A stretch of 40,579 nucleotides of DNA from an uncultured archaeon. GTDB taxonomy: Archaea; Aenigmatarchaeota; Aenigmatarchaeia; CG10238-14; SCSR01. The first letter of the stretch is position 1. Each line of letters starts with the position of its first letter. Below the pieces are notes generated by a model. The model did no database searches. It had not been told where the DNA came from and saw only the letters and a list, made by a program, of their open reading frames with translations. The DNA lies in the NCBI GenBank assembly GCA_964590365.1, contig CAZPVR010000001.1:1-40579 (forward strand), in the 5' to 3' direction. Positions 1,977-37,872 of the stretch are shown here, piece by piece. Position numbers and translations under genes: made by a program.

Positions 1977-2065
1977 GCCCCCATCGTCTAGTCCGGCCAA
2001 GGATACGAGCCTCTCGAGCTCGGGACGCGGGTTCAAAGGCTAAGCTGAAAATCCCGCTGGGGGCA
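1977..2065 (+). tRNA. tRNA-Glu (anticodon CTC) with a 14-nt intron in the T-loop (position 59/60)
   Basis: Acceptor GCCCCCA/TGGGGGC, D arm GTCT-AGTCCGGCCAA-GGAT, anticodon stem CGAGC/GCTCG with loop CT-CTC-GA, T stem GCGGG/CCCGC. The T-loop is 21 nt instead of 7. Confidence 0.8.
2038..2051 (+). other. non-canonical tRNA intron (BHB motif) in the tRNA-Glu T-loop
   Basis: The outer helix is the T stem. The central 4-bp helix is UUCA (2032..2035) with UGAA (2046..2049). The 3-nt bulges are AAG (2036..2038) and AAU (2050..2052). The inner element is GC-UAA-GC. Cutting after the second nucleotide of each bulge leaves the canonical T-loop UUCAAAU. Confidence 0.7.
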
Positions 2066-2250: not shown

Positions 2251-3087
2251 CTAAAACTTATTTCTTTTTCTCATTTTCCTTAAATAACCTTCTATTTCAT
2301 TCGAAAAAAGGAAAAAGTTTAAAAGGAGTGGCCAGTCGTAAACAAATTCTTCAACAATTTCCCTCGAATTTAAAATTTGTGTAAAAAATTTTAAGTTGTG
2401 ATTTGTGGGATAATAGCTATAAATTTCGATGCTGGCAGTGGGAGGAGAAAAATTAGTTTTAGCAGTAGAATATAAAAGCTTTGCTGAGAAGAAGAGAGAA
2501 TAGTAAGAAAAAAACAATTCGGGCATGATTTTATAAGGTCCTACCAAATCTCTTTTTACTCCAAGCATTAAGTTTATTTCCGAATAATTCTTCCCTTCAG
2601 AACATTCTTTCGAAATTTTATTTACCAATTCTTCCATATCCTTTTCGTTCCAATTTAAAAATTTTTTGAAGTTGTAATCCAATTCATCGCTAGAAAAGGA
2701 TAATCTTAAAGATGAGAGCAAATCTCTTTTGAAAGATTCTTTAATTTGGCTCACATGGAATTTTATTGAACTATCTTTTAATTTTCCTACTAAAAAACCA
2801 AACCATTGACTTGAAGGTTTTATCTCCTCTTTAGGCTTTTTTTCCAAAATTTCTTCCAACGCACTTTCAAAAGATTTATCTTCTTTTAAGGAAGGTTTGA
2901 AGAGCGAAGAAATTTTAATTATATCATTCCCCAAATTTTCTGCATCCCTCTCTCTTTTTCTAACCTCAACGTAGAATTTTCTGCAGAATCCCTTTAAAAC
3001 CTCTCTCTTATCTTCCACAATTAAATTTTGTAAATTAATCTTTTCTAATTTTTTGGAAGAAAATCTTGTTTTTTGAATTCGATTCAT
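2251..3087 (-). CDS. hypothetical protein (278 aa), fifth gene of the Ubl/E2/JAB/E1 cassette
   Basis: ATG start overlapping the E1-like gene by 53 nt. Charged N-terminal half and an aromatic/hydrophobic C-terminal third (FFSYYSLFFSAKLLY...WPLLLNFFLF). No recognisable motif. Confidence 0.6.
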   Translation of the reverse strand: MNRIQKTRFSSKKLEKINLQNLIVEDKREVLKGFCRKFYVEVRKRERDAENLGNDIIKISSLFKPSLKEDKSFESALEEILEKKPKEEIKPSSQWFGFLVGKLKDSSIKFHVSQIKESFKRDLLSSLRLSFSSDELDYNFKKFLNWNEKDMEELVNKISKECSEGKNYSEINLMLGVKRDLVGPYKIMPELFFSYYSLFFSAKLLYSTAKTNFSPPTASIEIYSYYPTNHNLKFFTQILNSREIVEEFVYDWPLLLNFFLFSNEIEGYLRKMRKRNKF

Positions 3088-8106: not shown

Positions 8107-8192
8107 TGGGGCAGCTGGGATTTGAACCCAGGATTTCCACCGTTCCATGCTTCCCCAGGGTGGCGTCCTATTCCAAGCTAGACGACTGCCCC
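8107..8192 (-). tRNA. tRNA-Pro (anticodon GGG) with a short insertion of about 10 nt next to the anticodon (37/38 region)
   Basis: The reverse complement folds as acceptor GGGGCAG/CTGCCCC, D arm GTCT..GGAC, anticodon stem CCACC/GGTGG enclosing 17 nt (CTGGGG-AAGCATGGAA-C), T arm CTGGG-TTCAAAT-CCCAG. Only a relaxed BHB could be drawn by eye. Confidence 0.65.
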
Positions 8193-25632: not shown

Positions 25633-28600
25633 CTAAATCCTCTGTATGAAGCCTGGAGAAGGCTCAAAAACTACTCCTTCGCTCTTCATACTTCTTAATA
25701 TATCCTCAGCGTTATCTATTCCTCTTTCCCTTGCTGCTTTAATTATCTCATCAACAGGAATGTTCTTTCCAAAAACTTTTTCAAGCTCGTTTATTATGTC
25801 TATCATACTCCTTATCTTTCCTCTTTGGGAGCTTGGTATATGGCCTTCTGCCCTATCTATATCTATTTTACCAGTTTCTGGGTCGAAACCAAATTGCCTT
25901 AAGGATGCTTTCATGAGGTTTATTGCCCTTATAGCATCTTCGGGCAAAACTTCGTTTCTGATTTGAACTTTTGCGGATGCTTCAGCGAGCCTTATTAAAG
26001 CTTCATACTGCCTTAAAGTTATTGGAATTGGAGATTCTTCCCCACTTGCTTTTTCCCTCAACTTAACGAAAAAATCTTTTATTATTTCTCCTGCCTCCTT
26101 GGTGAGCTTTGGTTTGCAATTTTTTCTTGCGTAGGCTATATACTTCCTCATAAGGTTTATATCTATCTCAGGTTTTACCTCCTCTTCCATAAAGTGTCTC
26201 GCTTTAAGTATATGGTCTGCGATTTTTGCATCAAGCTCAGGATTTGGCACATCTCTTAAAGCAAACTTTAAGTCGAATCTTGCAAGCAAAGTTTCTGGAA
26301 CGTTTATTTGCTCTTTTATAGGCAAGAAAGGATCGAACCTTCCAAATTTTGGATTTCCTCCTGCCAATATAGCAGTTTCTGCAGGTAAAGTAGCAACTAT
26401 GCTAGCTTTAGCTATGCTTATCGTTTGCTGCTCCATAGCCTCATGCAAAGCAATCTGGTCAGTTTTTTCTATCTTCTCAAATTCATCTATAGCGCAAAGG
26501 CTTTTATTACACATAACTAAAGCTCCTGCTTCCAAAACCCATCCTCCCAAAAATTCTTCATCCCTTACAACAGTAGCAGTTAATCCTGCAGTAGTTACTC
26601 CTTTTCCTGAAACATATCTACCCCTAGGAATCAGGCTTGAAACAACCTTCATCAAAGCGCTTTTCGCAGTATTATGGCAGACTATTCCATTTGCGACAAA
26701 CCTATAATGGTTTGGAACTTCTATGTCATAAACAGTTTCTGGAGGATGATATATTATCTTAACAACTTTTTCCCAGCGTTTATAATGCTTTCTTCGTTTC
26801 AATTTTTTTACTTCTTCTACAAGTTTTTCTAGCTTTTCTTTTTTCTTTTTTGAGTTAAAGCCTATATGTTTAGCGAACTTCATAATAGAGTTCGCTTCTC
26901 TTATCATTAAGTTATTTCCATAAATTCTTGAGTGAATGCCAAATCTTAATAAGAGAATTTGGATATCACGCAATAATTCAACATCTTTAGCTTTATAAAG
27001 TATGCCTCTTCTACTCCCTTTTGAAATTACTGAGCCATCACCATCATAAAGCCAAGAAAGGAAATGAGCAACAACGCTATTTTTTGATTGTAAAATTAAG
27101 TCAGGAATTCTTTTAATTTTTATAAATTCCAAAATTTTCGCCAATCTAAAAGAATTAAATACCATTTCAATATTAACACCGTTTTTTCCTTTATGCTTTT
27201 TAACTCTTGGTTCTATATCAAAAATTTCCTTGAAAAATTCTTTCATTTTTGGTAATAAATCTAGCTCTTCATAGTTGAATGTACAACCAACTCTGTATTT
27301 TTGTACATAACCATCAGCCAACAAATAACCAAGAATGCTTGCCAATTTTTCATCTACCACTTTCGGTATTTTAATTTTCTTTCCTCTCTTAGAATTATCT
27401 TCGATATTCCATTTAGTTTCTACATATTTGTAGATTCTGCATGGTATCCAGTTGATGGTTCTAACTTTATCACCAATTTTTATTTCATCCAAACGTTTCC
27501 ACATAACTGGTAAGGGTTTACCAAAAGCACCCTTTCCACTTTCCTTAGCCAGAACAGGCTGGTTGAAAGTACCTTTTATACTTTTTCCACTTTCTGTAAC
27601 AATTTCTATTATAGGATGAAATTCGTACTTATGAAAGACTTTTGCCATTCCTCTTTTATAACCCTGTGCTAAATAAACTGGAACATTAATTTTCTGTAAA
27701 TGATGTGAGCCTAGAGAAGAAATTTTAACAATACTACCATTTGCAAGTATAACTCTTTCATCCCCAACCAAACAACTTGGGTCGCCGACTAATAAAATGT
27801 GAATATCTCCCCTTACTCTCGATTTGTCCTTTTGTATGTGAGGGACTCCACCAAAAAGCTGAAGCAAAATGGCCTCTTTTACTTCATCCATCCCATAAAG
27901 GCTTGGAGCGATTGAATTAACAAATTTTCTGTAAATTTCAGGATCTTTTGACAGCTCTAAAATCTTTTTCTCATCTTCAGGAGAAATTTCAATTTCTTCC
28001 CATTCAACCTCTATGCTCTCAATGTTATTCGCATCTAAATAAATTTCTATCTGTCTACTTCTCGTTCCTTTAACTCTTCTTGGCAATTGCTTCAAGATAC
28101 CAATTACTCTTATCCTATTTCCAGGGTCTGTTTTTGTCTGCATTTTTGGCAAAGTAAGGTCTTCTTTTAAGAAAACCATTATTTCAGAAGGCCTTTCTCC
28201 ACTAGTAATCTCAAAAGGCTCTTCTATCACTATCCATCTTGCATCGTAAAGCTTCTGATCGACAAACTTAAAACCTTTTTTACAACCACAATCGCATTCT
28301 GTGGGAGCCCTTATCATCCTTTCAGTTTGAAGCACAGAAATTCTTTTTCCACATTCTGGACATAAGAATACTGCCTCAGAAACCTCAGGCCTTACTTCAC
28401 TTGCTCTTTTAACTATGCCCTCTACAACTATAAGCTTACCTATATGGTTAGATCTTATGTTTCTTATTCTTATTTCCCTCTCTTCCGGTAAATTTACAAA
28501 CCTTATCCTTAAGACTTCTTCTCCTGGTAAATCCAGTTGCTTAAGCGCTTCCTCTGCAAGCGGTATAGTTTCTTCAGGATTTTCCACCACAAGATCGGCA

Positions 28601-28749
28601 ACTTCTGGATTAAACTTATCCAAAAGGCCAAAATCCACTATTAAAGATTTTTTTCCTTGGCTTAAGCATGAAATTATTTCTTGGTAATAATTCTCCTTTA
28701 GGAATTCCGCGAATATATCTATAATATCGTCTCTCTCCATAGAACCCAA
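25633..28749 (-). CDS. mcm: MCM replicative helicase, interrupted by an intein in the Walker A P-loop
   Basis: N-terminal Zn finger CPECG...CDCGC, Walker A split as LLVGDPS[intein]TAKS, Walker B CAIDEFEK, arginine finger SRFDL-like LLARFDL, C-terminal winged helix. 670 aa without the intein. Confidence 0.95.
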   Translation of the reverse strand: MGSMERDDIIDIFAEFLKENYYQEIISCLSQGKKSLIVDFGLLDKFNPEVADLVVENPEETIPLAEEALKQLDLPGEEVLRIRFVNLPEEREIRIRNIRSNHIGKLIVVEGIVKRASEVRPEVSEAVFLCPECGKRISVLQTERMIRAPTECDCGCKKGFKFVDQKLYDARWIVIEEPFEITSGERPSEIMVFLKEDLTLPKMQTKTDPGNRIRVIGILKQLPRRVKGTRSRQIEIYLDANNIESIEVEWEEIEISPEDEKKILELSKDPEIYRKFVNSIAPSLYGMDEVKEAILLQLFGGVPHIQKDKSRVRGDIHILLVGDPSCLVGDERVILANGSIVKISSLGSHHLQKINVPVYLAQGYKRGMAKVFHKYEFHPIIEIVTESGKSIKGTFNQPVLAKESGKGAFGKPLPVMWKRLDEIKIGDKVRTINWIPCRIYKYVETKWNIEDNSKRGKKIKIPKVVDEKLASILGYLLADGYVQKYRVGCTFNYEELDLLPKMKEFFKEIFDIEPRVKKHKGKNGVNIEMVFNSFRLAKILEFIKIKRIPDLILQSKNSVVAHFLSWLYDGDGSVISKGSRRGILYKAKDVELLRDIQILLLRFGIHSRIYGNNLMIREANSIMKFAKHIGFNSKKKKEKLEKLVEEVKKLKRRKHYKRWEKVVKIIYHPPETVYDIEVPNHYRFVANGIVCHNTAKSALMKVVSSLIPRGRYVSGKGVTTAGLTATVVRDEEFLGGWVLEAGALVMCNKSLCAIDEFEKIEKTDQIALHEAMEQQTISIAKASIVATLPAETAILAGGNPKFGRFDPFLPIKEQINVPETLLARFDLKFALRDVPNPELDAKIADHILKARHFMEEEVKPEIDINLMRKYIAYARKNCKPKLTKEAGEIIKDFFVKLREKASGEESPIPITLRQYEALIRLAEASAKVQIRNEVLPEDAIRAINLMKASLRQFGFDPETGKIDIDRAEGHIPSSQRGKIRSMIDIINELEKVFGKNIPVDEIIKAARERGIDNAEDILRSMKSEGVVFEPSPGFIQRI
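26671..27774 (-). mobile_element. intein (368 aa) with a LAGLIDADG homing-endonuclease domain
   Basis: Begins at Cys326 (CLVGDERVILANG, block A). LAGLIDADG motifs ILGYLLADGYV and FLSWLYDGDGSV. Block F/G VYDIEVPNHYRFVANGIVCHN, followed by +1 Thr (TAKS). Boundaries were checked against codons (TGT at 27774..27772; AAT at 26673..26671). Confidence 0.9.
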
Positions 28750-29876: not shown

Positions 29877-29910
29877 ATTTATTTTAAAAGAATTTAGAAG
29901 AAAATATAAA

Positions 29911-29916
29911 GGTGAT
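29911..29916 (+). promoter_or_regulatory. Shine-Dalgarno-like GGTGAT upstream of rnhB
   Basis: GGTGAT, then 3 nt, then ATC (29920). The same GGTGAT-N3-start layout occurs at 33064..33069 before the GTG of dph2. Confidence 0.4.
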
Positions 29917-29919
29917 TAC

Positions 29920-30657
29920 ATCTTAATTTGTGGAATAGACGAAGCAGGGAGAGGAGCTTTAATCGGGCCTTTAGTCATAGCTTGCGTTTGCATAGAGAAA
30001 AAGGATGAAAAAAAGCTTAAGGCTATTGGAGTAAAGGATTCCAAGACTTTGAGCCCAAGCAGGAGAAAAGAGCTTGTCGAAGAAATAGAAAAAATTGCTA
30101 AGAATGTAGTTGTCTTAAGAATTCCTGCATGCAAAATTCTGAGCTATAGTAAGAAAAAAATTAAGCTTGATGAGTTGGAAGCAATAAAAATTGCACAACT
30201 GATTGAAATGATAGATGCAAAAAAATTTTACATAGATTCCCTTGGCAATGCAAGAGAAAATCCTAGGTTCGAAAGGATGATAAGGAAAAATTTAAGCAAG
30301 GATGTTGAGCTTGTAGTTGAAAATTATGCAGATGAAAACTATCCGGTAGTTTCAGCAGCATCTATAGTAGCAAAAGTTGAAAGGGATAGGGCAATAGAGG
30401 AATTGAAGAAAAAAGTTAAGTTTGATTTTGGCGTTGGTTACAGCCATGATGAGAGAACGATAAAATTTTTGGAAAAGGTTTTTCTTGAGTATGATAAAAA
30501 ACCTGACTTCATAAGATGGCATTGGGATACTGTTGAAAGCGTGGCAGAAAGGCTTTGGAGAGAGGGAAAAAAGCTAAAACCATGGGTAAGGGAAGAAATA
30601 CTCAAGGGTAAAAGCCTGCAAAAAATTATAAAAGATTTCTTTAAGAAAATGAAATAG
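29920..30657 (+). CDS. rnhB: ribonuclease HII (start codon unresolved; the ORF track begins only at the internal TTG 30049)
   Basis: In-frame upstream codons encode (I)LICGIDEAGRGALIGPLVIACV...GVKDSKTLSP, the catalytic N-terminus of RNase HII. The track ORF continues with ...DSLGN...ADENYPVVSAASIVAKVERD...GYSHD. Confidence 0.8.
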   Translation: MLICGIDEAGRGALIGPLVIACVCIEKKDEKKLKAIGVKDSKTLSPSRRKELVEEIEKIAKNVVVLRIPACKILSYSKKKIKLDELEAIKIAQLIEMIDAKKFYIDSLGNARENPRFERMIRKNLSKDVELVVENYADENYPVVSAASIVAKVERDRAIEELKKKVKFDFGVGYSHDERTIKFLEKVFLEYDKKPDFIRWHWDTVESVAERLWREGKKLKPWVREEILKGKSLQKIIKDFFKKMK

Positions 30658-34844: not shown

Positions 34845-35330
34845 ATGAGGATTTCAGAACAAATCTTTCCTCGTTGCACAGTTTTAATAGGAAGTGTTAA
34901 TAAAAAAGGGAAGAAAAATCTTATGACAGCAAGCTTTGTAATGCCAGTAAGCTTTGAACCAAAATACTTAGCATTCTCCATTTCTCCTGAAAGAGAAACT
35001 TTTAGAAATTTGAGAGAAACGAAGGAATTCAGCCTAAATTTATTGAGCAAGGAAATGAAGGAAGTTGCTGAGATATGCGGGAAATATTCTGGAAAGGATG
35101 TTGACAAATTCAAGCTTGCGGGCATAGAAGGGGAAGAAGGAGAAATTATAAAAGCTCCCTTGGTTAAAGAGGCTCCTATAAGCTTTGAATGCAAAGTTGA
35201 GTTCATGAAAAAGTTCGGGGATCATTTCATAGTTGTTGGAAAGGTTGTGAAAGAGCATGTAAGAAAAGAAAATTTTTCTCCCTTACTCCATAAAACAAAA
35301 AAAGAATTCATGGAAGCTCATGCTTTATAA
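34845..35330 (+). CDS. flavin reductase-like (FMN-binding split-barrel) protein
   Basis: FPRCTVLIGSVNKKGKKNLMTASFVMPVSFEPKYLAFSI...FSLNLL...SGKDVDKF...FECKV...GDHFIVVGKVV. The internal ATG at 34845 avoids overlap with the convergent gene. Confidence 0.75.
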   Translation: MRISEQIFPRCTVLIGSVNKKGKKNLMTASFVMPVSFEPKYLAFSISPERETFRNLRETKEFSLNLLSKEMKEVAEICGKYSGKDVDKFKLAGIEGEEGEIIKAPLVKEAPISFECKVEFMKKFGDHFIVVGKVVKEHVRKENFSPLLHKTKKEFMEAHAL

Positions 35331-36274
35331 AATTTCAATTCGCTTTCTTCCAAAATACATTCTTCAGGAGTTTTATCAAACCTAATTTTTTTAAAGCTTG
35401 GTGCTCTAAACTTTAAATCTTCTGTTAAATTCATAAAGCATACCTCAACGACATACTTAGGCCTAACCCAATGTATCTTTTCCAAAATTTCTCTATCCTC
35501 AAAATCCTTTATCGGACATTCCCCCGTTTCTATTTTCTTAAACAGTTTTGTTAAAAAAATTAAATCTTCCTCGTTAAATCCTGTCCCAACCCTTCCCAAG
35601 TACTTCAGTTCTTTCTTAAAGTAAATCCCGCATAGCAAAGAACCAAAATATTTTTCCCTCCATCCTGTTCCTTCAGTAAAGCCTATTACTATACAGTCCA
35701 AACTCTTCAAAAACTTAATCTTTAACCATTCCTTACTCCTTTTTCCTATTTCATACTTAGAATCTAGCCTTTTCGCCATTATACCCTCCAAACCTTTCTT
35801 CTTACATTCTTCAAAGAAATTCTTTCCTTTACCTATAACATAAGGAGATAAAATTATTCTATTGCTTTCCTTCACAACATCCTCCAAAATTTTCTTCCTT
35901 TTTATTAAAGGAAGGTCTATTAAATCCTCCCCGTTCAAATGTAAAATGTCAAAGGCCACAAAAGTTGCTGGTAAAATCTTTGAGAGTATTTCAATTCTTG
36001 CATAATCATCAACATGCTCCCTCGTTTGTAAAGAAGGGAAATCTGGCTTTCCCTCCTTGAAAACAACTATTTCGCCGTCCAAAATTACTTTTTCTCCCTT
36101 AACATCATCTATCAAGCCCTTAAGCTCAGGATATCTTTTTTCAAAGTAAATTCCCCTTCTATTCAAAAACCTTACTTCATTATTAACCTTATCCAAGTAG
36201 CAAATGGCTCTCGTTCCGTCGAATAAGACCATCTTTTGGCATTTCACCAAAAGATTTTGATCTCGAAGAGCCAT
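35318..36274 (-). CDS. ATP-dependent DNA ligase (LigD-type ligase domain), main body; as an uninterrupted ORF it lacks the motif I lysine
   Basis: ...FDGTRAI (second half of motif I), ILDGEIVV, FVAFDIL, EGIMAKRLDSKYEIGKRSKEWLKIK (motifs IV-V) and an OB-domain-like C-terminus. See the intron feature and finding. Confidence 0.8.
   Translation of the reverse strand: MALRDQNLLVKCQKMVLFDGTRAICYLDKVNNEVRFLNRRGIYFEKRYPELKGLIDDVKGEKVILDGEIVVFKEGKPDFPSLQTREHVDDYARIEILSKILPATFVAFDILHLNGEDLIDLPLIKRKKILEDVVKESNRIILSPYVIGKGKNFFEECKKKGLEGIMAKRLDSKYEIGKRSKEWLKIKFLKSLDCIVIGFTEGTGWREKYFGSLLCGIYFKKELKYLGRVGTGFNEEDLIFLTKLFKKIETGECPIKDFEDREILEKIHWVRPKYVVEVCFMNLTEDLKFRAPSFKKIRFDKTPEECILEESELKFYKA
36225..36256 (-). 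other. candidate 32-nt BHB intron interrupting ligase motif I
   Basis: Central helix GAUC (36262..36259) pairs with GGUC (36230..36227). The 3-nt bulges are AAA (36258..36256) and UUA (36226..36224). The inner perfect 9-bp stem is AUCUUUUGG/CCAAAAGAU (36255..36247 and 36239..36231) with a 7-nt loop. Excision joins EWLFEIK to FDGTRAI in frame. Confidence 0.55.
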
Positions 36275-36312
36275 TCTTTTGAATCAAATGGCTGTGAAAT
36301 TTGGGCGAGCAT
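36244..36312 (-). CDS. ligase N-terminal mini-ORF / putative exon 1 (MLAQISQPFDSKEWLFEIK...)
   Basis: My translation in a different frame from the main ORF is MLAQISQPFDSKEWLFEIKIFW*. MLA...PF...W.FE.K is the canonical start of LigD-type ligase domains up to the adenylated Lys. Confidence 0.6.
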   Translation of the reverse strand: MLAQISQPFDSKEWLFEIKIFW

Positions 36313-36338
36313 CGGTTTTATTTTTTTATCGAACAAGC

Positions 36339-37085
36339 TCACAACCCCATCACCTTCTTAAAGCTTATAGCACTATCTTTCATCCAAACGTTATTGAACA
36401 AGCAATAAACTTTTTTAACGTTTAAACTTTCTATTATGCTCTTAAGCTCTAAAAGCTCTTTTTTCTCATACTTATGCTTATAATTGATCCTTCCTTTCTC
36501 ATAGCTACCATGCATCCTAAAGTATGCAATTTTCTTCTTAGAGAACCATAAAGGCTTTGAAGCAAACGGGTCTACGCAAGAAATTAAATCAAATTCTTTG
36601 CAAATTTCTTTAAAGCCTTTTTCGCTCCATCCCCTTAACTCTAAGCATATAGAAATTCCATTTCTCTCTATCCTTTTAAAGAATTCTTTCGCATTTTTCA
36701 GATTTTCCTCTTCTTCCTTAAAACTTGGAGGAAGTTGGATCAAGCAAATTTTTGAACCCAAAAGCTTGCAAATTTCCAAATTTTTATTCCAGAATTCCAT
36801 AACCTCTTTAGTAGGCCTGAGAAAGCCTACTTTGTCTTTCAACTTTTCAATTTCACTCCTTTCCATTCCTGCTCTTTTCCATGTTGGTGAGCTTGTTGGA
36901 TGGGTAATTCCTTGGAAAGCTTTAACCGAAAATTCAAAATCCTTTGGAGCCTTCTCCCTCCATTTTTTAACCAAATCCAAGCTCGGAATCTTATAAAAGG
37001 TTGATTGAATCTCAACTACAGAAAACTCTTTAAAATATTTTTCCATACTCATCGGAAAGCCGCAACATCCTATATAAACTTCCAT
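36339..37085 (-). CDS. DUF72 (YecE-like, TIM-barrel) protein
   Basis: VYIGCCGFP...YFKEFSVVEIQSTFYKIPS...KKWREKAPKDFEFSVKAFQGITH fits the DUF72 pattern. ATG 37085, 1 nt after the ku stop, is preferred over the track start at 37112. Confidence 0.7.
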   Translation of the reverse strand: MEVYIGCCGFPMSMEKYFKEFSVVEIQSTFYKIPSLDLVKKWREKAPKDFEFSVKAFQGITHPTSSPTWKRAGMERSEIEKLKDKVGFLRPTKEVMEFWNKNLEICKLLGSKICLIQLPPSFKEEEENLKNAKEFFKRIERNGISICLELRGWSEKGFKEICKEFDLISCVDPFASKPLWFSKKKIAYFRMHGSYEKGRINYKHKYEKKELLELKSIIESLNVKKVYCLFNNVWMKDSAISFKKVMGL

Positions 37086-37086
37086 G

Positions 37087-37872
37087 TCAAGCTTTCTTCT
37101 TTTTCTTAACAAGCTCTACGGAAGCTTTAAGCTCTTCCAGCAAGCTTTTAGCCTTTTCAACAGGCTCTTCAACTTCTACTTTAAATTCCTTCCCTTCAGC
37201 TTTTGCCTTTATAAGCTTCATCAACTCTTCAGTGTAAGTATCTTTAAATTTTGAAACATCGAACTCTGGCTCTGTTAGCTTTGATATTAAAGCTTGAGCC
37301 AATTTCAGCTCCTCCTCCTTAACAGTTACCAAATTCTTTAGCTCGCTAAGCTCTTCTATGTCCTTAACTTCTCCTAAGTAGTGCAAAATATGCATAACCA
37401 ACCCTTTCTTGAAAGCCCTTAAAGCTACTAGGTATTCTTTATTCCTCATAACAACTTTTCCTATAGCAACTTTGTTGGAAACCCTTAAGGCTTCTACGAA
37501 CAAAGAATAAGCTTTGATCCCTGTTTCTTCCGGAACAACATAATAGCTTTTTTCTATGAATATAGGGTCTATTTGTGAAATGTCTACAAACTCTTGAATT
37601 TCAATTGCTTTAGTAGTTTTTAGCCTAAGTTTCTCCAAATCCTCTTTTTTTATTACTATATACTTTTCCTTAGTTAGCTTAAACCCCTTATCCACATCTT
37701 CATAAGCCACTTCCTTATTGCACTTTGGGCACCATCTCTTGTTTATTAAAGGAGTTCCGCACTCCTTATGCAAATTGTGGAAGGAAATTATTCTTGCTTC
37801 TGTTGCTGAATAAACTTTGATAGGAATGTTTACTAACCCGAAAGAAATGCTTCCGCTCCATATTGCCCTCAT
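37087..37872 (-). CDS. ku: Ku DNA-end-binding protein (prokaryotic type)
   Basis: MRAIWSGSISFGLVNIPIKVYSATE...FHNLHKECGTPL...C..C...V...KGF... is the conserved Ku N-terminal core. Lys-rich C-terminal tail (VKKKKKA). Confidence 0.9.
   Translation of the reverse strand: MRAIWSGSISFGLVNIPIKVYSATEARIISFHNLHKECGTPLINKRWCPKCNKEVAYEDVDKGFKLTKEKYIVIKKEDLEKLRLKTTKAIEIQEFVDISQIDPIFIEKSYYVVPEETGIKAYSLFVEALRVSNKVAIGKVVMRNKEYLVALRAFKKGLVMHILHYLGEVKDIEELSELKNLVTVKEEELKLAQALISKLTEPEFDVSKFKDTYTEELMKLIKAKAEGKEFKVEVEEPVEKAKSLLEELKASVELVKKKKKA

Follow-up and report, generated by a model that had tools for sequence, protein, structure and literature searches.

A candidate bulge-helix-bulge intron in the catalytic lysine codon of an end-joining DNA ligase gene of Aenigmarchaeota

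How can a gene whose long open reading frame (ORF) lacks the catalytic lysine encode a DNA ligase? The question is raised by the contig CAZPVR010000001.1 (assembly GCA_964590365.1), which was analysed over its whole length of 40,579 nt (positions 1 to 40,579, hereafter the window) and which carries, on its minus strand (-), a gene for an ATP-dependent DNA ligase of non-homologous end joining (NHEJ). In archaea, bulge-helix-bulge (BHB) elements are normally excised from tRNAs. Marck and Grosjean are said to have described the non-canonical BHB introns of archaeal tRNAs in 2003, and Watanabe et al. reportedly described, in 2002, a BHB intron in the cbf5 pre-mRNA of Crenarchaeota. Here, we read the ligase locus again and compared it with its orthologues. 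The gene, which is associated with Ku and belongs to Aenigmarchaeota, very probably contains a genuine BHB intron of the mRNA, spliced by endonuclease and placed within the lysine codon itself.

The ligase ORF of 318 aa at 35318..36274 (-) starts MALRDQNLLVKCQKMVLFDGTRAI... and is without K-x-D-G. The upstream frame reads ...MLAQISQPFDSKEWLFEIKIFW*, and the RNA of the minus strand runs ...GAA UGG CUC UUC GAG AUC AAA AUC UUU UGG UGA..., which is translated as ...EWLFEIKIFW* (the asterisk is a stop codon). When the 32 nt at 36225..36256 are deleted, a single ORF of 963 nt is obtained, 320 aa from the ATG at 36312, which reads EWLFEIKFDGTRAICYL. Motif I is then E-I-K-F-D-G-T-R, and K-x-D-G with its adenylation lysine exists in the spliced form only. 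The N-termini of the orthologues read MSLW..KIKPMLA...FE[IV]K. We prefer the GTG at 36342 (VSLFDKKIKPMLAQ...) as the start of the ligase because the orthologues begin MSLW..KIKPMLA; this probable start would give an exon 1 of 86 nt and a protein of 330 aa. The ATG at 36312 encodes an internal Met, the one in the conserved PMLA.

The spliced product matches the Pfam families DNA_ligase_A_M (PF01068, 8e-40) and DNA_ligase_A_C (PF04679, 7e-23). It aligns over its full length with the ligase domain of Mycobacterium tuberculosis LigD (1vs0), with EIKFDGTR opposite FEGKWDGYR. With motif I, the adenylation and OB-fold domains, and the linkage to Ku, the predicted spliced protein is an NHEJ ATP-dependent DNA ligase of the LigD type.

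The 32 nt and their flanks can be folded into a BHB, the parts of which are listed in Table 1. In the strict register, the outer exon-exon helix consists of A-U, G.U, a CxC mismatch, U.G and U-A, that is, 2 bp, a mismatch and 2 bp. A tRNA-Glu of the window has a BHB intron as well, in its T-loop. A cut after the second nucleotide of each bulge restores a 7-nt T-loop there, as it restores the motif in the ligase, which shows that BHB splicing in the host genome extends to non-canonical positions and obeys one and the same cut rule. Most of this had been stated in an earlier reading of the DNA, made from the letters alone (the first-pass annotation). On re-reading, each of its statements on the sequence holds: the ORF lacking K-x-D-G, the upstream E-x-K frame and the restoration of motif I by the 32-nt deletion. 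The BHB that it described, with a 4-bp helix, 3-nt bulges AAA and UUA, a 9-bp stem and a 7-nt loop with a stop codon, is found exactly in the window, the tRNA-Glu intron at 2038..2051 obeys the cut rule and has its T-loop restored, and the outer helix is as weak as it was said to be, with the CxC mismatch recurring in 14 of the 15 carriers described below. The 320-codon ORF that it read from the ATG at 36312 is real; as the start of the gene, this ATG is replaced here by the probable GTG.

Fifteen distinct carriers of the insert were available as DNA, namely the window (together with L081, identical in the 32 nt), 4 GTDB representative genomes (L016, L020, L024 and L027) and 10 metagenomic contigs (in the range L082-L092). 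The carrier orthologues have 56-67% amino acid identity to the ligase of the window and come from independent assemblies. Every one of the 15 is interrupted directly after the second base of the Lys codon, by an insert of 17, 25 or 31-35 nt, lengths that cover all three classes modulo 3. The 5' bulge is AAA in every carrier. Cutting after the second nucleotide of each bulge would give AAR (Lys) and E-x-K-[F/L]-D-G-T-R in 15/15, whatever the length of the intron (17-35 nt). Every carrier (15/15) has A or G as the third base of its 3' bulge, hence the uniform AAR of the spliced codon.

The paired positions were counted on loop-trimmed constructs in a fixed register, over these 15 sequences. The central helix is paired in 60 of 60 cells and shows compensatory changes at three of its four pairs, with A-U, G-C and C-G all found at position 2. 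Its variants are GAUC/GGUC, GGUC/GACC, GGUC/GGCC, GCCG/CGGC, GAUU/GAUC and GAUC/GAUU, in which the exon codon covaries with the intron strand. The foot of the inner stem (three bp) is paired in 45 of 45 cells, with compensatory changes at each of the three pairs; the inner stem as a whole, which has 9 bp in the window and 3-12 bp in the other carriers, covaries too. The covariation score is 0.438 versus 0.217 in shuffles, and 0 of 500 shuffles reach 0.438, while slid registers are only 7-51% paired. Unconstrained RNAalifold on the untrimmed sequences arrives at this core as well, and compensatory changes occur at 10 of the 15 pairs. The insert in the same phase, the covarying BHB and the lysine restored in all carriers support an endonuclease-spliced mRNA intron, as had been proposed at first pass.

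Two frames could also be brought together by translational recoding, in which ribosomes would bypass the 32 nt, in the style of phage T4 gene 60, or shift frame, with no splicing of the RNA. Just past the Lys codon there are a stable hairpin and a stop codon, a superficial likeness to a bypass signal. Programmed bypass requires take-off and landing codons that match, yet the take-off codon is AAA and the landing triplets across the carriers are UUA, UCA, ACA, AUA, GUA, UGA and AGA, none of which matches, and the gap is anywhere between 17 and 35 nt long. The exon codon covaries with the insert's 3' end at an exact spacing of 3 nt and 4 bp, as recognition by EndA would predict and hopping would not. 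The same geometry is also present in a tRNA of the same genome. Recoding is thereby made highly improbable.

The spliced ORFs of all 15 carriers have 311-323 codons and no further lesion. For the closest pair of carriers (L083 and L085), the ratio of non-synonymous to synonymous substitution (dN/dS) is 0.057 at a dS of ~1, and the two introns have only 3 differences in 32 positions, none of them at a paired base. By these sequence measures, the spliced ligase exons are under purifying selection. Synonymous codons in the exon follow the helix. The Glu codon is GAG in 15/15 carriers versus 19/35 close intron-less relatives, and codon x of E-x-K ends in C in 13/15 carriers, while it is ATA in 20/35 of the intron-less relatives. 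The exon-exon duplex energy is -12.0 kcal/mol in carriers versus -8.8 kcal/mol in intron-less genes (p = 0.004, uncorrected for phylogeny). As far as codon usage indicates, the synonymous codons of the exon are biased to keep the central helix.

These observations bear on whether the gene is a pseudogene, that is, a ligase inactivated by a small palindromic insertion and now decaying. The insertion does shift the frame and take the catalytic lysine out of the long ORF, and annotation pipelines do call a truncated protein. However, a decaying gene does not account for 15 diverged lineages that keep both exons intact with no second lesion and with the low dN/dS given above, for paired positions of the insert that are conserved or covary, for a lysine restored exactly in 15/15, or for synonymous codons that favour the helix. 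The first-pass annotation had named the comparison of orthologues beforehand as a check, with decay as the sign of a pseudogene; 15 diverged carriers with intact exons under purifying selection were found. We regard a pseudogene as extremely improbable.

An artefact of assembly or sequencing, in the form of a spurious 32-nt hairpin insertion, was considered for the reason that some library artefacts produce short palindromes. Four separate assemblies (NCBI, Logan and two from ENA) of the window species or near-identical strains have the same truncated call of 304 aa, which in the two ENA cluster members starts in the 3' end of the insert. At the DNA level, the window and the Logan assembly L081 were seen, and the 32 nt are identical. 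Homologous inserts occur in fourteen other species. The misassembly that the first-pass annotation had wanted checked is contradicted by this agreement, and its probability is negligible.

The carriers are all DPANN archaea, and the insert was found in none of the ~130 bacterial and non-DPANN archaeal ligase loci examined. A metagenome scan for more carriers returned 80 loci and no additional interrupted copy. A covariance model of the intron without its exon flanks, run on 316 kb of DPANN sequence, found the ligase introns and one extra match, L016:807-838, which was rejected as an intron: it is a chance E-V-K codon string with a hairpin within an intact methyltransferase ORF. Gene calls of 283 aa beginning 'MNRRG...' were considered as a third intron site and are really carriers at the first site whose read-through frame holds a stop. 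In the protein collection searched for the spliced product, no full-length spliced protein of the window species was present. P0245, the sole full-length member of a carrier cluster, proved to be a genomic intron-less allele.

We propose that the RNA is processed by the established archaeal BHB pathway. EndA would cut after the second nucleotide of each bulge, and RtcB would join the exons ...GAGAUCAA and AUUCGACGG..., and would probably circularise the excised intron, for which the predicted circle junction is ...GGUCUU followed by AAUCUUUUGG.... Only the spliced mRNA would encode the active ligase (E-I-K-F-D-G-T-R). On the unspliced mRNA, ribosomes would stop at the UGA of the intron loop after ~32 residues, and downstream products of 304-318 aa would be without the catalytic lysine. 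A stop in the frame of exon 1 is found inside the intron in 14 of the 15 carriers, mostly in or beside the loop. Ligase activity would be strictly dependent on splicing because the intron sits in the codon of the catalytic lysine. The regulatory switch suggested at first pass is, like a need for an enzyme of the epsilon2 type, a speculative idea that the sequences do not support.

Alternatively, EndA may cleave a real BHB and the exons may not be joined again; the mRNA would be destroyed or down-regulated, or a small RNA released, and the Lys-less protein or another ligase would do the work. There are precedents for such cleavage in rRNA processing and in a 5' untranslated region (5'UTR) (PMC7714728), and the intron shows stronger conservation than synonymous sites do, perhaps a sign that the excised RNA has a function. 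Against this stand the conservation of exon 1 as coding sequence and the exact restoration of the lysine and the frame in 15/15 despite the variable length of the insert, which is explained only if joined exons are translated. Cleavage without ligation is very unlikely by comparison with the complete splicing proposed above.

Several points weigh against splicing and have to be set beside the evidence. The outer exon-exon helix is weak, with 4 pairs, and RNAalifold favours a shifted helix UCGA/UCGA with a 3' bulge of 4 nt. The 3' bulge has 3 nt only if the CxC mismatch at the third position of the outer helix is accepted, in 14/15 carriers, and the strict register is fully paired in L024 alone. 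In either register, except in L024, the BHB is relaxed on its 3' side and would need a tolerant enzyme; DPANN EndAs carry loops that are associated with a broad substrate range (PMC5829648). The 3' strand of the outer helix is invariant across carriers because it is coding, and it gives no covariation evidence either way. A more distal exon-exon helix (AAUGGCUCU/AGAGCCAUU), perfect in the window, is weakly enriched in carriers (6.3 vs 5.4 of 10 pairs) and is not claimed as conserved. EndA and RtcB are absent among the genes encoded in the 40,579-nt window, and their presence in the host we infer from two things, the tRNAs with introns on the contig and the fact that DPANN archaea generally have EndA (PMC5829648). 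The covariation counts given above come from related sequences and so do not represent independent events. Splicing itself we infer from sequence.

The fold of a single sequence is also a poor guide, and it was rejected as a criterion, since BHB-like motifs are no commoner in the window than in dinucleotide shuffles. With a loose definition, both strands of the window give 893 matches versus ~974 in the shuffles, and BHBs with an inner stem of at least 7 bp number 29 versus 24. A scan of the window for other BHBs that would fuse ORFs gave dozens of matches at gene boundaries and missed the ligase case, and it was uninformative. It is the comparative data that decide the question. A BHB with exactly the position and length that restore the frame would arise by chance with a probability of ~1e-4 to 5e-6; that it recurs, with covariation, in 15 orthologues is far beyond chance.

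The carriers are scattered across the ligase tree among intron-less sisters. Within the ligase family, the intron is old and polymorphic. Twelve introns at the first site (36225-36256 of the window and those of L020, L027 and L082-L092 were compared) form one sequence family with a mean identity of 0.67, where unrelated introns score 0.44. Intron identity reaches 0.84 between hosts that are 57% identical. The four-fold synonymous sites of the hosts are saturated at 0.40. The conservation of the intron exceeds what base pairing alone requires.

Close relatives (80-91% identity) differ in the presence of the intron, even inside one metagenome. In metagenome 3300043541, the carrier L083 (compared at 853-1283) is found alongside an intron-less allele, L174 (1492-1581), with exon 2 ~90% identical. 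Their nucleotide sequences are homologous at 90% along Ku and at 87% along exon 2. In between, over the spacer, an ORF of 74 aa, exon 1 and the intron itself, the homology disappears, and it sets in again where the intron has its 3' end. In the carrier L092 (419-643), an ORF also 74 aa long precedes the ligase; its likeness to the ORF of L083 is one of length only. At 80-95% identity in exon 2, a carrier and an intron-less copy share 39% of exon-1 positions 4-16, while two intron-less copies share 78%. This replacement of exon 1 is seen in at least three lineages and not in L089. From these alignments, gain or loss of the intron seems to accompany replacement of the 5' segment by recombination, either as a lateral gain or as a recombinational loss.

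L001 (454..474) and L013 (3068..3088), in which the first site is uninterrupted, have an insert at a second site, located 7 nt further downstream and flanked by FDG and TR. The insert there has 21 nt, is in frame and bears a stop (FDG/KK*KLP./TR, where the slashes mark its ends), and is unrelated to the introns of the first site. Its geometry is BHB-like, with a 3-bp helix CGG/CCG plus an AxG mismatch, a bulge AAA or AAU, and a stem GAAG(U)/(A)CUUC. The ligase of L001 is 86% identical to that of a carrier at the first site. In L024 (~3004-3020), a minimal first-site intron of 17 nt interrupts a divergent ligase (FEPK/LDGTR); its central helix is GCCG/CGGC, its inner stem has 3 bp, and its outer helix is fully paired because Leu UUG replaces Phe UUC. 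The intron of L024 may be an independent gain. The intron family, the differing presence of the intron in close relatives, the replaced exon 1, the second site and the short intron of L024 together suggest a more far-reaching idea, which we put forward only tentatively and consider rather doubtful. In this view, the intron is no passive relic but a unit that spreads laterally, either by targeting the region of motif I in NHEJ ligases or by being retained there through selection. If this were true, there would be a mechanism of mobility or co-conversion for BHB introns in protein genes or, alternatively, selection for gating ligase synthesis on the activity of EndA and RtcB.

The intron has consequences for public annotation. 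A search with the spliced protein returned NHEJ ligases of Aenigmarchaeota, and ~20 of 120 clusters start 'MxxFDGTR' or with read-through junk and have no E-x-K. The truncated, Lys-less annotations are P0001, P0004, P0009-11, P0016, P0018, P0031, P0035, P0038, P0042, P0057, P0058, P0063, P0068, P0081-84, P0088 and P0093. Some Lys-less ligase entries are still named 'bifunctional NHEJ protein LigD'. The intron is the cause of a systematic error of annotation: at least 20 public ligase protein clusters appear as catalytically dead proteins with a truncated N-terminus.

Table 1 Features of the ligase locus and of the intron-bearing tRNA-Glu in the window.
Feature	Position	Strand	Description
Exon 1 of NHEJ DNA ligase	36257..36342	(-)	86 nt; from the probable GTG (VSLFDKKIKPMLAQISQPFDSKEWLFEI) through AA, bases 1 and 2 of the catalytic Lys codon
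Putative BHB intron (AAUCUUUUGGUGAAAUGCCAAAAGAUGGUCUU)	36225..36256	(-)	32 nt; phase 2 in the motif I lysine codon
Exon 2 of ligase	35318..36224	(-)	907 nt; opens with the last base of the Lys codon and FDGTRAICYL..., ends with the stop codon
Central 4-bp helix, 5' strand GAUC	36259..36262	(-)	Last base of Glu codon and Ile codon; pairs with 36227..36230
Central 4-bp helix, 3' strand GGUC	36227..36230	(-)	Inside the intron
5' bulge AAA	36256..36258	(-)	Predicted cut between 36257 and 36256
3' bulge UUA	36224..36226	(-)	Predicted cut between 36225 and 36224
Inner hairpin h'	36231..36255	(-)	9-bp stem AUCUUUUGG / CCAAAAGAU (36255..36247 / 36239..36231)
Inner-hairpin loop UGAAAUG	36246..36240	(-)	7 nt; contains UGA in the exon-1 frame, 36246..36244
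Outer exon-exon helix, 5' strand UUCGA	36263..36267	(-)	From Phe and Glu codons
Outer exon-exon helix, 3' strand UUCGA	36219..36223	(-)	From Phe and Asp codons
DUF72 gene	36339..37112	(-)	Between Ku and ligase; stop codon overlaps the ligase GTG start by 4 nt
Ku gene	37087..37872	(-)	Pfam Ku, E = 2.7e-49; 813 nt upstream of the ligase
tRNA-Glu(CUC)	1977..2065	(+)	Rfam tRNA match, 15-nt insertion in T-loop; missed by ARAGORN
tRNA-Glu BHB intron, T-loop	2038..2051	(+)	14 nt; central helix (H) UUCA/UGAA; bulges AAG, AAU; outer helix is the T-stem

The window encodes an archaeal gene set that includes TBP, MCM with an intein, RFC, aIF2-beta and RNase HII. It was assigned to Aenigmarchaeota because the named relatives of its EF-Tu-family GTPase are all Aenigmatarchaeota. 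Its gene order of radical-SAM, Ku, ligase and BFN matches that of Aenigmatarchaeota metagenome-assembled genomes. The Ku gene gives the ligase its NHEJ context; elsewhere in Aenigmarchaeota, the Ku and ligase genes lie side by side or have a 74-aa ORF between them. The MCM helicase gene, 25633-28749 (-), has an intein with a LAGLIDADG homing-endonuclease domain at residues ~334-693; the contig thus has intervening elements of two kinds in genes of DNA metabolism. The RNase HII ORF (30049..30657) was suspected to be a second split gene, as it has no N-terminal catalytic motif, and was rejected: the motif lies in frame upstream, uninterrupted. RNase HII, 29900-30657 (+), is continuous through its catalytic GIDEAGRG, has no in-frame ATG, GTG or TTG upstream of the motif, and probably uses a non-canonical start. 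A tRNA-Pro(GGG), 8107-8192 (-), is 86 nt long and has an insert of ~10 nt beside the anticodon.

In the literature searched, reports of BHB introns in archaeal mRNAs are confined to cbf5 of crenarchaea (PMC2738675) and the 5'UTR of HVO_1309 in Haloferax (PMC7714728). A study of 2020 names cbf5 as the sole reported mRNA example before it adds one 5'UTR case (PMC7714728). This literature yielded nothing on BHB mRNA introns in DPANN, in Aenigmarchaeota or in ligase genes, which fits the novelty supposed at first pass. On the sequence evidence given here, the ligase is the second known archaeal gene with an ORF-interrupting BHB intron; the gene, the lineage and the position at the catalytic lysine are new, and the proposed mechanism is that of cbf5.

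The cbf5 intron (Yokobori et al. 2009, PMC2738675) is likewise short, lies within a protein ORF, is defined by a BHB and is removed by the tRNA splicing endonuclease. It also shares a patchy phylogenetic distribution, lineage-specific loss and mis-prediction of the gene. It differs in its host, a pseudouridine synthase gene in Desulfurococcales and Sulfolobales, whereas the ligase intron is found in an NHEJ gene of DPANN archaea, inside the codon of a catalytic lysine, with a second site 7 nt away and with presence and absence among copies that are ~90% identical. The splicing of cbf5 was shown experimentally, while that of the ligase is predicted from sequence. In HVO_1309 of Haloferax volcanii (PMC7714728), a BHB of an mRNA is processed by the splicing endonuclease, but it is situated in an untranslated leader and leaves the frame uninterrupted, whereas the ligase intron breaks up a catalytic motif and alters the frame. 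Non-canonical BHB introns of tRNAs, including those of DPANN (PMC5829648), have the identical hBHBh' geometry and cut rule. The ligase differs from them in that its host RNA is an mRNA and its outer helix, relaxed on one side, is made from codons (UUCGA...UUCGA).

In the splicing of HAC1 and XBP1 mRNA by IRE1 and RtcB, a short intron defined by structure (26 nt in XBP1) is removed, the exons are sealed by RtcB and the frame is changed. The likeness to the ligase is one of working, in that a cut by a protein endonuclease and sealing by RtcB would change the reading frame and the protein; we offer it as an analogy and do not count the ligase as a member of that system. IRE1 is an unrelated endonuclease with an unrelated recognition motif, and the eukaryotic system, unlike the ligase, is a proven stress switch.

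For more than 20 years, the endonuclease-spliced introns that interrupt ORFs in archaea rested on cbf5 alone. The ligase would place such an intron in a different superphylum, DPANN, and in a different pathway, Ku-dependent end joining. The truncated annotations suggest that BHB introns in the coding genes of DPANN archaea are being missed systematically. The polymorphism of the intron, its second site and the replacement of exon 1 that accompanies it together offer a tractable system for the gain and loss of BHB introns.

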